Sequence record: OL362041.1
Origin: Escherichia phage vB_Eco_OMNI12
Direction: 5' to 3' (one strand)
Length of the DNA: 64,000 nt
The notes beneath the pieces were generated by a model. The model made no database searches. It had not been told where the DNA came from and saw nothing but the letters and a program-made list of their open reading frames with translations. This document shows, piece after piece, positions 15,054 through 39,937 of the stretch. Both the position numbers and the translations under genes were made by a program. Within the stretch, counting starts at the first letter, position 1. Each line of letters starts with the position of its first letter.

Positions 15054-15296
15054 TTATTCCTTAATTCCTAGTACTTGTTTAAAAGTCTCGTCGTAATCAA
15101 GACTTTGACCTGTTTGTTCTTTATGTTTGTATATAATATCACTTACTTCTGATAGCATATTTTTATATGAACGAGTTAAAGCAGATTTAAGCACGCTGTA
15201 TCTATCAGGAAATTTACCATGTTCATTATAATAAGCTATTGCTAATTCACGGACTGCCTTTTCAGCAGCCTCCATATATTCTTTACGCTTGGTCAT
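15054..15296 (-). CDS. hypothetical protein
   Basis: ORF track 80 aa. Confidence 0.5.
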
Positions 15297-15298
15297 TT

Positions 15299-15688
15299 TT
15301 AATCCAAAATATTATTAGGCATTGGTTGAACACTCACAAGTTCTTTAAAGAACTCAGTAGAGTCAGGCAATTTAACCATTTCCGGAGCATGCTTACTGAA
15401 TTTATGTTTACATTGACGGCATTTATATTCAAGCTCTGGTTTACGCCAGTTAATCAACTGAACTTGTTCAGTACCGCATTCAGGGCAATTAGGAACGTTT
15501 TTAGAAGCTCTTTCACGTCGTTCAACCATAGCCATAATAGCATCCCATGCTGGAGGTTTAAAATCTAAATCGTCGCAGCCGTGAATCTTTCCACGCATTT
15601 CCATATCATCTTCCTCACCAGCCATAATAATTTTAATTAAACTGGAATTACTTGAAGCTGCAATGTCTTCTAATAAACGCTTTTTCAT
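15299..15688 (-). CDS. zinc-ribbon protein
   Basis: 129 aa; CPECG...CRQCKH four-Cys ribbon. Confidence 0.5.
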
Positions 15689-30408: not shown

Positions 30409-30729
30409 TTATTCTTTAAATCTAATCAATTTATTCATAGACTTTGAAACTTCTGCACGAACCTCATGTAGATTTTTGAGCTGTTCAAGACGCTGCTCAT
30501 AGTAAGCAATTTCATCTTCTTCGAGACAGTCCTGTGAATCTTCTTTAAGATACCGTGCATAGTCCTGGAAAGCGTTACGGACTACTTCCTGGAAGTCATC
30601 AAGACTTTGAATTTTCTTAGGAGCAGCAGACACACGACGAGGGGCAGTATAATACTCATAACCAAACCCTGCGCTTAATTGAGCCATTAATATTTTTCCT
30701 CTGGTTGGAACACAGCACGACAAGCCCAC
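30409..30729 (-). CDS. hypothetical protein
   Basis: ORF track 106 aa. Confidence 0.4.
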
Positions 30730-31535: not shown

Positions 31536-31916
31536 TCAATTAGAAAATAATTTTATCCAAGATTGTTCTTTAATTAAAAATGGCTCAGAATCATATGCCA
31601 TTAAACTTTGAGTAATTAATCCTTTAAATGGTCCATCAATAAATTCCATGGTAAAATATGGAATTTTATTCATTAATCTTGCATTAGGAGCAGTGCACAA
31701 AACTCTGCATCCTTTGAATACACCTTTTTGTAATTTGTATTGCTTGGGATAAAATTCGCTCAAGACGTTGTTATTTGCCAAAATTTCAAAATGATTCACC
31801 AATTTATTTTTAATAGTTTTTGGCGAAAAATAAAGATATTCGAAAAGTTGCGTATCTGTCATCATTGCATTCCAATTACGAAAAACTGCGGACGAGTAAT
31901 ACCGCCAATGCAGCAT
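31536..31916 (-). CDS. hypothetical protein
   Basis: ORF track 126 aa. Confidence 0.45.
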   Translation of the reverse strand: MLHWRYYSSAVFRNWNAMMTDTQLFEYLYFSPKTIKNKLVNHFEILANNNVLSEFYPKQYKLQKGVFKGCRVLCTAPNARLMNKIPYFTMEFIDGPFKGLITQSLMAYDSEPFLIKEQSWIKLFSN

Positions 31917-32401
31917 TTACTATTGCAGCAGTGTTGCACAGTTTCAATATGAATATCGTAAATCTTATCCATATCAGGAGATTTGACAGGCTCATCAATT
32001 ATATACAAAATTCGCGAAAGCGATAAACCTCTGAACTTGCTTCCTTTATTACCAATAAAACTGCGCACAGAATCAGTAAATAAACGAAAACGTATATCAT
32101 CATTAGAATAACGCGAAAATTCCTTTTTAATATTATCTGCGGAAATTTTAGCGTAAGCTGAAGTATTAGAAAGAACAATAACTGTTCCGCCATCATACAA
32201 CCAATTAGCAGCAAAGTTAGTCACAGCAATTGATTTACCAGATTGACGCCCACCATCTAGTCGAAGTGTACAATACTGTTTAAGTAAGTCTTCAAATGGC
32301 GGGATATATTCGTTTTTACAAATTTCTTCTACTCTAGCATCAGAATGGTGTGTAAAAGCATTCATCAGGGATAGATAAGGACCAGTTAAAAATGTTCTCA
32401 T
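31862..32401 (-). CDS. P-loop NTPase, hypothetical
   Basis: Walker A GGRQSGKS, Walker B LYIIDEP; start uncertain (Met 1, 7 or 17 of ORF track). Confidence 0.45.
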   Translation of the reverse strand: MRTFLTGPYLSLMNAFTHHSDARVEEICKNEYIPPFEDLLKQYCTLRLDGGRQSGKSIAVTNFAANWLYDGGTVIVLSNTSAYAKISADNIKKEFSRYSNDDIRFRLFTDSVRSFIGNKGSKFRGLSLSRILYIIDEPVKSPDMDKIYDIHIETVQHCCNSKCCIGGITRPQFFVIGMQ

Positions 32402-32546
32402 TTTGTTCTCTCTAGGTTTGGGCCATTCCATGGCGCATGAATTGTCCATTTCTGTATTTACCCATTACCGCACTTGGGCTCGACCTTATTACAGGTTGGC
32501 GGGAATCCCTCACAGAATCATGAGGTCCAGGTTATTCCCATGTTAT

Positions 32547-32963
32547 TTAAATGTAAATATTTTTGCCGTAATACTTATACCAGTGTGGCTTCATTAAAAT
32601 TTTTTCATCGAGTCGTTGTTGACTCAACTTAATAGCTGATTTGCATGGATTATAATCATTTTTTCATTCTACTGGAATATCGCTGATGTCAGGAACTTCA
32701 GTATCTTTTATACTGAACCCGCGTTTTAAGCATTCCGTTATAATGTCCGATTGACGCTTTCGCAAAAATTCTAACTTATCGTAAAAGAAAGTAACATGAC
32801 CAGAACCTAAAATAAATTTAGAAGATATTTTAAAATCTTTAACGCGCTTACCGTTTGCCACATGCTTACGAACTATACCAAAAACACGCGGCAATTCACG
32901 GTATTCTGCGATTAAATGTTGATCAGCAAGTTCAGATACTAAAGTCAAATTAATACGAGTCAT
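32547..32963 (-). pseudogene. denV: denV (pyrimidine-dimer glycosylase, endonuclease V) interrupted by in-frame TGA
   Basis: 99-codon ORF ends at TGA (32666-32664); same frame continues 38 codons ending WYKYYGKNIYI, collinear with remembered T4 endo V (138 aa). Confidence 0.7.
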
Positions 32964-32982
32964 TTTATCCCTCCAAGTAACT

Positions 32983-33017
32983 GTGAATATACTATCACAA
33001 TTCTAGGAGAAAGTAAA
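32983..33017 (-). promoter_or_regulatory. T4-type early promoter upstream of denV
   Basis: -35 TTTACT (33012-33017), 17-nt spacer, -10 TAGTAT (32989-32994). Confidence 0.5.
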
Positions 33018-33022
33018 CAACT

Positions 33023-38269: not shown

Positions 38270-38580
38270 GCGGCAACCTTGTCGGGGTTCCACCTGCTAA
38301 GACAAGTGTTTGTACGAAACGCCGGGATTCGAACCCGGTTATTAAGTAGTTGACGCTACTCAATATTTTTAAAAGGCCATATCTCGACCATATCCGAACG
38401 TTCCGTCAAAAACGCTACTCGGCTTACGGCAAAGATATTTCCTCGAATCGATAATTCGGTGCGCCGTTTCTGCTGTGGTGTAAGAGGGCATCAACAAATC
38501 ATAAAGATTTATTAACGCAATTCCTTACCCAGGGAACATCAGTCCGACGACTTACCGGTAGCGACCCGGTTTCTTGTCTG
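38270..38580 (-). ncRNA. tRNA-like small stable RNAs (T4 species 1/2, rnaC/rnaD-like); boundaries approximate
   Basis: No ORF; T-arm-like CCGGGUUCGAAUCCCGG element; lies between tRNA-Arg and terminator as in T4. Confidence 0.5.
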
Positions 38581-38581
38581 G

Positions 38582-38655
<74 letters not shown>

Positions 38656-38658
38656 TAA

Positions 38659-39324
38659 TTAAAATTTCATTTTTCGACCTTTAAACCATCCTTCTGGAAT
38701 TGGGTCAGTTTTCTTAATACGTTTAGAAACTTTTTCATCTAATGAATGAATCCACATCATACCAAATTGGGAATTCTTTTCACCTTGTTGGTGTTTATTT
38801 TTGGCGTGAGATTCTTTCATTTTATTAATAGTTTCAAGAGTATGGGTCTTACCCAAGAAAGATTTAATATTTAAAAATTTCTCTCTATACTTAGGATTAT
38901 CCCAAAGCTGTTTAAACCTTTCTGAACCCATTTTACGATATTTTTCTTTAAGGTCTGGGTCGTTCTCAAATCTGGTTTTAAAAGCAGCAGCCCCTTTTAA
39001 GGAAGCTTCTTTCTTTTTATCCAAATATTCTTTAGTGTTTAAATGGTCCCAACCACCTTCACCACCTAATTTCAAATTATAAACATCAGGGCGCTTTAAA
39101 AACTCTTCAGTCACAATATTCTTTTCTGACTCAAACATAGAGGTTTTATCGTCAAAGAACTCTAATATTTCTTTAGAGAAATTTTCTATACCATACTTGT
39201 CTTGGGCTCTTTTTAATAATTTACCAGAACCCATATATCCATCATCTAAATTTTCGGTAGAATGAGCGCCTATATAGATTTTATTATTAATTTTATTTGT
39301 TATTTTATAAGTGTAATGGAACAT
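38659..39324 (-). CDS. segB: GIY-YIG homing endonuclease SegB
   Basis: 221 aa; GIY-YIG motif YKITNKINNKIYIGAHS; sits inside tRNA cluster as in T4. Confidence 0.8.
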   Translation of the reverse strand: MFHYTYKITNKINNKIYIGAHSTENLDDGYMGSGKLLKRAQDKYGIENFSKEILEFFDDKTSMFESEKNIVTEEFLKRPDVYNLKLGGEGGWDHLNTKEYLDKKKEASLKGAAAFKTRFENDPDLKEKYRKMGSERFKQLWDNPKYREKFLNIKSFLGKTHTLETINKMKESHAKNKHQQGEKNSQFGMMWIHSLDEKVSKRIKKTDPIPEGWFKGRKMKF

Positions 39325-39365
39325 AAATATCTCCTATTTCTAAGAGTATTTATGTTCCCAAAATA

Positions 39366-39437
39366 TGGCCCTGGGTGGAATTGAACCACCATCTGGCGAT
39401 TATGAGTCGCTTGCTTGAACCTTCCAGCTACAGGGCC
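39366..39437 (-). tRNA. tRNA-Ile (anticodon CAU, lysidine-type)
   Basis: 72 nt; anticodon loop CU-CAU-AA; T-arm GGUGGUUCAAUUCCACC. Confidence 0.8.
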
Positions 39438-39443
39438 TTGATA

Positions 39444-39516
39444 TGCTGATTGACGGAATCGAACCGCCGACATCCTCATTACAAGTGAGGTGCTCTACCT
39501 ACTGAGCTAAATCAGC
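39444..39516 (-). tRNA. tRNA-Thr (anticodon UGU)
   Basis: 73 nt; D-arm GCUCAGUAGGUAGAGC; anticodon loop CU-UGU-AA. Confidence 0.85.
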
Positions 39517-39523
39517 GAAATTA

Positions 39524-39610
39524 CGGAGGCGATAGGATTTGAACCTATGAGTCACCGGAGCGACTGCCGGTTTTCAAGACCGGTGCATTAAACCACTCTG
39601 CCACGCCTCC
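39524..39610 (-). tRNA. tRNA-Ser (anticodon UGA)
   Basis: 87 nt with long variable arm; anticodon loop CU-UGA-AA. Confidence 0.85.
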
Positions 39611-39612
39611 AG

Positions 39613-39686
39613 TCTCCGCGGCAGGATTTGAACCTGCGACATTCTGCTCCCAAAGCAGACGCTCTACCAAACTGAGCTACACGGAG
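39613..39686 (-). tRNA. tRNA-Pro (anticodon UGG)
   Basis: 74 nt; anticodon stem UCUGC/GCAGA, loop UU-UGG-GA. Confidence 0.85.
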
Positions 39687-39698
39687 TAAATTAAATTT

Positions 39699-39770
<72 letters not shown>

Positions 39771-39776
39771 AAACTT

Positions 39777-39863
39777 TGGTACGAGAAGTGGGACTCGAAC
39801 CCACAAGGAAATCATTCCGCAGCATTTTAAGTGCTGTGCCTTTACCAATTTGACCATTCTCGC
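39777..39863 (-). tRNA. tRNA-Leu (anticodon UAA)
   Basis: 87 nt with long variable arm; anticodon loop CU-UAA-AA; CCA encoded. Confidence 0.85.
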
Positions 39864-39864
39864 G

Positions 39865-39937
39865 CTGGGAATAAAGGACTCGAACCTTTGCATCTAGCAG
39901 TCAAAGTGCTATGCCTTACCAACTTGGCTAATTCCCA
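39865..39937 (-). tRNA. tRNA-Gln (anticodon UUG)
   Basis: 73 nt; anticodon loop CU-UUG-AC; 1-nt spacer to tRNA-Leu. Confidence 0.85.

Follow-up and report, generated by a model that had tools for sequence, protein, structure and literature searches.

The denV gene of Escherichia phage vB_Eco_OMNI12 most probably carries a real and very recent opal mutation, which changed codon 100 from TGG (Trp) to TGA and left a 99-residue open reading frame (ORF) at the locus for endonuclease V. OMNI12 (vB_EcoM_OMNI12; GenBank OL362041) is T4-like and was obtained in Sydney in 2019, from sewage or pond water; its whole-genome data are deposited under BioProject PRJNA764821 (PMC9603335). The analysis covered a stretch of 64,000 nucleotides of this phage, referred to here as the window. 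The deposited product of the 99-aa ORF is UGC97568.1, named 'endonuclease [Escherichia phage vB_Eco_OMNI12]', and is identical to it in sequence. The parts of the locus are listed in Table 1.

Table 1. Features of the interrupted denV locus of OMNI12 (positions in the window)
Feature	Position	Strand	Description	Basis
Possible T4-early-type promoter	32989..33018	-	GTTTAC, 18 nt, TGaTAGTAT	By-eye reading; weak, inferred
Shine-Dalgarno sequence	32969..32974	-	GGAGGG, intact, 5 nt upstream of the denV ATG	Read from the sequence; same in Pinarejo
denV codons 1-99	32667..32963	-	N-terminal part of a T4-type endonuclease V, with Thr2 and Glu23; 99 sense codons from the ATG at 32963-32961	ORF and translation, Pfam, PHROG
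Premature opal codon TGA	32664..32666	-	In place of Trp100 (TGG)	Sole difference in 451 nt from Pinarejo; likewise from Ptacy1496
denV codons 101-138	32550..32663	-	38 codons in frame, cut off from translation, encoding KNDYNPCKSAIKLSQQRLDEKILMKPHWYKYYGKNIYI	Translation; DNA as in the intact allele
Content of codons 101-138	32550..32663	-	Helix 3 (108-124), R117, K121 and the WYKYY C-terminal segment	
Original denV stop TAA	32547..32549	-	Closes the frame	Sequence and translation

Counting the TGA as one codon, the frame comprises 138 codons and has the same length as T4 denV. The changed base is at window position 32664 (A on the coding strand, T on the plus strand). The candidate promoter is situated in the interval from the gene e stop (33023) to denV; it was likened to the consensus of T4 early promoters, and a scan for the sigma-70 consensus called no promoter directly upstream of denV.

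The gene was identified by comparison with profile families and with the T4 enzyme. The 99-aa ORF scored 52.1 bits against Pfam family PF03013 (Pyr_excise), above the curated cut-off of 23, and covered positions 1 to 97 of the 139-position PHROG 1183, 'endonuclease V N-glycosylase UV repair enzyme' (E = 8.4e-48). A 138-aa reconstruction with Trp at position 100 aligned without gaps to residues 1 to 137 of the solved T4 endonuclease V (DenV, T4-Pdg; 2END, 1VAS; E = 1.8e-69), with ~78% aa identity over these 137 residues and the same length. In this alignment, Phe100 (TTC) of T4 stands opposite the premature stop. Residues Thr2 and Glu23 are shared by the two proteins: the OMNI12 product starts with MTRINL and contains E23, and the two columns are invariant in a 38-sequence alignment. 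Thr2, which provides the alpha-amino nucleophile, and Glu23 are the catalytic residues of the T4 enzyme. The OMNI12 counterparts of R117, K121 and the WYKYYGK motif are encoded past the stop. Comparison of the T4 annotation with the window ORFs and with identical contigs places denV downstream of the lysozyme gene e and upstream of vs.8, as in T4. By these comparisons, the window ORF is homologous to denV and not a chance resemblance, 450 of 451 DNA positions being shared with an intact allele. The original prediction, which had named the gene denV, interrupted by an in-frame TGA after 99 codons and followed by a 38-codon continuation collinear with the C-terminus of T4 EndoV including WYKYYGK, for a total of 138 codons, was borne out by the Pfam, PHROG and 2END results, and its coordinates and frame were exact.

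The locus differs from that of T4 in two respects. Codon 100 is a stop in OMNI12, whereas it encodes Phe in T4 and Trp in the closest alleles, so that a single ORF yields a product of 99 aa and an uninterrupted ORF of ~138 aa containing helix 3 and WYKYY is not found. As read from the DNA, the locus is a disrupted member of the endonuclease V family, either a pseudogene or a leaky allele, with C-terminal codons that can be reached only by readthrough. The gene order also differs, since T4 has e, ipIII, ipII, denV and vs.8, whereas the window has e, denV and vs.8, without ipII and ipIII between e and denV. The spacer between e and denV (32964-33022) is only 59 nt long in the window, and its T4 counterpart (L010 2857-4003) holds ipIII and ipII.

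Among the intact alleles compared base by base, the closest was that of Escherichia phage Pinarejo, which encodes a 138-aa 'endonuclease V N-glycosylase UV repair enzyme' and shares 450 of 451 aligned bases with the window, gene and flanks included. The sole difference in these 451 nt is the G-to-A transition on the coding strand that converts TGG (Trp100) into TGA. Extension of the comparison to 701 nt added four differences, which are confined to the last part (3') of lysozyme gene e. The 38-codon tail has undergone no decay relative to the intact allele, and the Shine-Dalgarno sequence GGAGGG is intact, indicating that the lesion is very young. The closest relatives of the window (97-99% identical) all have an intact denV.

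The distribution of the TGA allele was determined by a megablast search of 50,697 phage records with an 81-mer centered on the stop. None of the 275 phage records covering at least 80% of the query contained the exact TGA 81-mer, and among the matches listed the best ones were one base off. An exact TGA 35-mer had no match in IMG/VR, the JGI metagenome contigs or the GTDB genomes, and the control 35-mer with TGG matched once in IMG/VR and three times in the metagenomes. In the collections searched, the TGA is private to one phage and is not a lineage trait.

Such a singleton could arise as a sequencing or assembly artifact, in which case the phage would really have TGG, and the A at the boundary between the G and the run of A residues would be a base-calling or consensus error. 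The changed base borders this run (TGGAAAAA to TGAAAAAA; TGG AAA AA), and the edge of an A-run is a context in which some platforms err systematically. The occurrence of the TGA in no other record or contig searched also fits this explanation, as errors look like singleton differences. However, Logan read assemblies of SRR16571691 (contig present in two samples) and SRR16571700 also yielded this 99-aa gene, on contigs that are 100% identical to the window over 4,668 and 1,810 nt. A random consensus error is unlikely, because separately made assemblies of at least two runs and three samples reproduce the TGA. These runs most likely trace back to a single laboratory and a single phage stock and hence speak for reproducibility, not for independence of origin. 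The change is moreover a substitution, whereas homopolymer errors typically are indels. In a six-frame comparison with Ptacy1496 spanning ~49 kb of the window, no annotated conserved coding sequence other than denV was broken by an in-frame stop in the window, indicating that the assembly is not error-ridden. On balance, we regard an artifact as improbable. The original prediction had left open a natural null allele, readthrough or a sequencing error; these were the right options, and the evidence favors a real nonsense allele with possible low-level readthrough.

The consequences of the truncation were deduced from conservation among 38 full-length homologues (54-80% identical to the query) and from an AlphaFold2 model of the intact allele. 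Position 100 is always occupied by a large hydrophobic residue (W in 21 sequences, F in 15 and L in 2). Past the stop, S114, R117, E120, P126 and Y129 are invariant in 38 of 38 sequences, and K121 (37/38), P106 (37/38) and W128 (34/38) are nearly so. The model (mean pLDDT of 90.8) comprises three long helices (residues 14-36, 64-80 and 108-124) and a short one (56-59); this three-helix fold agrees with that published for the T4 enzyme. The stop at codon 100 therefore costs the protein one of its three core helices together with the C-terminal aromatic segment. In the T4 enzyme, R117 and K121 are DNA contacts, and dimer-specific binding requires the WYKYY segment. Judging from structure and conservation, the 99-aa fragment should be inactive although it retains Thr2 and Glu23, because helix 3, R117, Y129 and the WYKYY tail are gone.

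We examined whether the TGA acts as a genuine stop. TGA terminates 22 of the 63 window ORFs of at least 120 aa and is a normal stop in this DNA. The window encodes eight phage tRNAs with the anticodons tct, cat, tgt, tga, tgg, tcc, taa and ttg (Arg, Met, Thr, Ser, Pro, Gly, Leu and Gln, respectively), and none of the eight has the UGA-reading anticodon UCA. A suppressor tRNA or an alternative genetic code was rejected on these two grounds. The RNA after the stop had a folding z score of -1.39, with 21 of 200 shuffled sequences folding equally well; the 146-nt spacer downstream of denV (32401-32546) had a z score of +0.30, which is not significant, and like the surroundings of denV it matched no Rfam family. 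A structured RNA or recoding signal after the stop or in the downstream spacer received no support from these values.

Maintenance of the TGA for programmed or regulated readthrough, or for another form of recoding that provides low or conditional amounts of full-length DenV or a functional 99-aa coproduct, would be favored by three properties of the locus. The base after the premature stop is A (UGA-A), the sole candidate for a stimulatory context at this position, and an A in this place makes UGA comparatively permissive for tRNA-Trp. The residue inserted by readthrough would be the ancestral Trp, and the 38-codon tail is perfectly kept. An intact tail is, however, equally expected of a mutation that is days to years old. 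Programmed readthrough predicts a conserved stop, but the relatives all have TGG or TTC at this codon, and the TGA was present in 0 of the 275 close records and in no IMG/VR, metagenome or genome contig. The lack of a significant structure after the stop, of an Rfam match and of a suppressor tRNA also argues against recoding, and the 99-aa fragment lacks a core helix. We therefore consider this explanation very unlikely. UGA decoding in the Q-beta coat/A1 system and in an E. coli reporter (PMC10570021) resembles what OMNI12 may do in that Trp-tRNA(Trp) competes at a low level with RF2. The OMNI12 stop differs in displaying no sign of conservation or selection, pointing to incidental leakiness and not to a programmed event.

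For a recent nonsense mutation, the reading that we prefer, the expected sequence of events is as follows. Transcription and translation of denV would persist, and most ribosomes would end at codon 100. The resulting 99-residue fragment would be unable to fold and to bind pyrimidine dimers, and the phage would then resemble a T4 v- mutant, being ~2-fold more UV-sensitive in the dark and otherwise without defect. denV is non-essential, as established with classical T4 v mutants, and a viable phage without any other defect is expected for this reason. Since the ancestral codon 100 specified Trp, readthrough by tRNA-Trp would yield authentic wild-type DenV, and the full-length enzyme would reach a few percent of its normal level. 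In E. coli K-12, readthrough of UGA by Trp-tRNA(Trp) in competition with RF2 amounts to ~2% at 37°C and ~4% at 25°C (PMC10570021), as determined with a K-12 reporter; values may differ at this codon, in cells infected by T4 and in hosts of clinical origin. We therefore class the allele as null to strongly hypomorphic; its leakiness would depend on the host.

A more speculative view, to which we give little credence, is that the opal codon works as a host-dependent dimmer and not as an off-switch, leaving a few percent of authentic DenV and maybe measurable dimer repair. If so, the amount of DenV would shift with the RF2 allele, the temperature and the growth state of the host, and OMNI12 would offer a natural example of a phage accessory gene whose dose is kept low by a leaky stop. 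In practical terms, the annotation of the 99-aa 'endonuclease' deposited for this therapy candidate should state that it is a truncated denV. UV or sunlight is also predicted to inactivate OMNI12 more easily than its relatives, with consequences for handling, environmental persistence and UV-based inactivation.

T2 is more UV-sensitive than T4 in classical genetics. The original prediction had ascribed this property to a defective v allele and had suggested that OMNI12 could be a T2-like phage of this kind. In the complete genome of T2 (AP018813), tblastn with the T4 and window proteins detected nothing at E values of 1 or less, and the positive control of the same search on the window gave E values of 1e-72 to 1e-91. 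T2 and the window cease to be homologous at window positions 32551 and 32974, the two ends of denV. Between these breakpoints (AP018813 62429-62902; L002 17430-17903), T2 has a 157-aa ORF starting with MKTYQEF that matches an internal virion protein family (PHROG 3155; E = 6e-102). On the AP018813 record, the classical UV sensitivity of T2 would result from absence of the gene and not from a defective allele. Although T2 is UV-sensitive and natural loss of denV occurs in the group, inheritance by OMNI12 of a lineage-wide defective v allele of the T2 type is scarcely credible, since T2 has no denV at all but an internal-protein gene in its position, the TGA is private to OMNI12, the closest relatives are all denV-intact and secondary decay is nil. 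The T2 internal-protein gene and denV are placed as if they were alternative cassettes, and in this part of the genome OMNI12 does not resemble T2.

A denV match was obtained in 1,106 phage records, and in 1,061 of them it spans at least 80% of the protein. Other disrupted forms of denV occur in the protein collections. In vB_EcoM_G2540 (MK327936.1 63066-63650), residues 1 to 97 of denV are fused to a vs.4-like 92-aa protein, giving a 195-aa chimera. This chimera maps to window positions 30412-30711 and 32670-32963, which implies a deletion of ~1.96 kb in window coordinates that takes out the denV tail and the region of vs.8, vs.7, vs.6 (GrcA) and vs.5. Clustering of the 99-aa product at 90% with unrelated 92-aa proteins is due to the G2540 chimera. 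A 122-aa form (P0007, five contigs) ends with ...NEKF and fits the loss of one nucleotide from the A-run GAAAAAATT, which occupies window positions 32598-32609 (denV codons 119-122). This form is a second truncation of denV, either real or produced by a homopolymer sequencing error. N-terminally short forms of 121 aa, in a T4 record (P0070), and of 115 aa (P0031) were called without the first 17 or 23 residues, respectively; they could represent N-terminal lesions or mis-called starts.

Going by these records, denV is dispensable and has been repeatedly lost, in at least four ways, in T4-like coliphages, which indicates that selection for the gene would be weak or intermittent. In T2, vB_EcoM_G2540 and the 122-aa form, as in OMNI12, either denV as a whole or the C-terminal part of its product is lost. 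These losses involve cassette-level absence, a ~1.96-kb deletion and a probable 1-nt deletion in an A-run, respectively, whereas a single substitution in an otherwise intact gene is responsible in OMNI12. The laboratory v- nonsense mutants of T4 resemble the OMNI12 allele in being point nonsense mutations in a non-essential repair gene for which a UV-sensitive, viable phage is expected. Unlike these mutants, the OMNI12 allele arose naturally or during stock propagation of an environmental isolate, and its opal codon replaces a Trp codon, so that misreading by tRNA-Trp restores the wild-type residue. As a natural allele the OMNI12 denV is new; its kind is very well known and will not surprise the specialist.

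Other observations were made in the window. The 146-nt spacer downstream of denV is comparatively G+C-rich by eye and is shared by T2; it contains a 33-codon ORF that is annotated as a gene in some records. Farther downstream, the vs.8-like gene (31862-32401) is intact and belongs to PHROG 1488. Its product has a GxxxxGKS P-loop-like motif and weakly matches PHROG 2, the family of terminase large subunits (E = 5e-6). The T2 counterpart of this gene (L002 16754-17289) is split into several short ORFs. The tRNA cluster (38579-39937) comprises 8 genes versus 11 in the close relative Ptacy1496, those for His, Asn and Tyr being missing, and has a gap of ~710 nt between tRNA-Arg and tRNA-Met. In the nrdC region, the ORF at 15057-15543 aligned with Ptacy1496 in two separate pieces only, revealing a locally divergent or rearranged patch.
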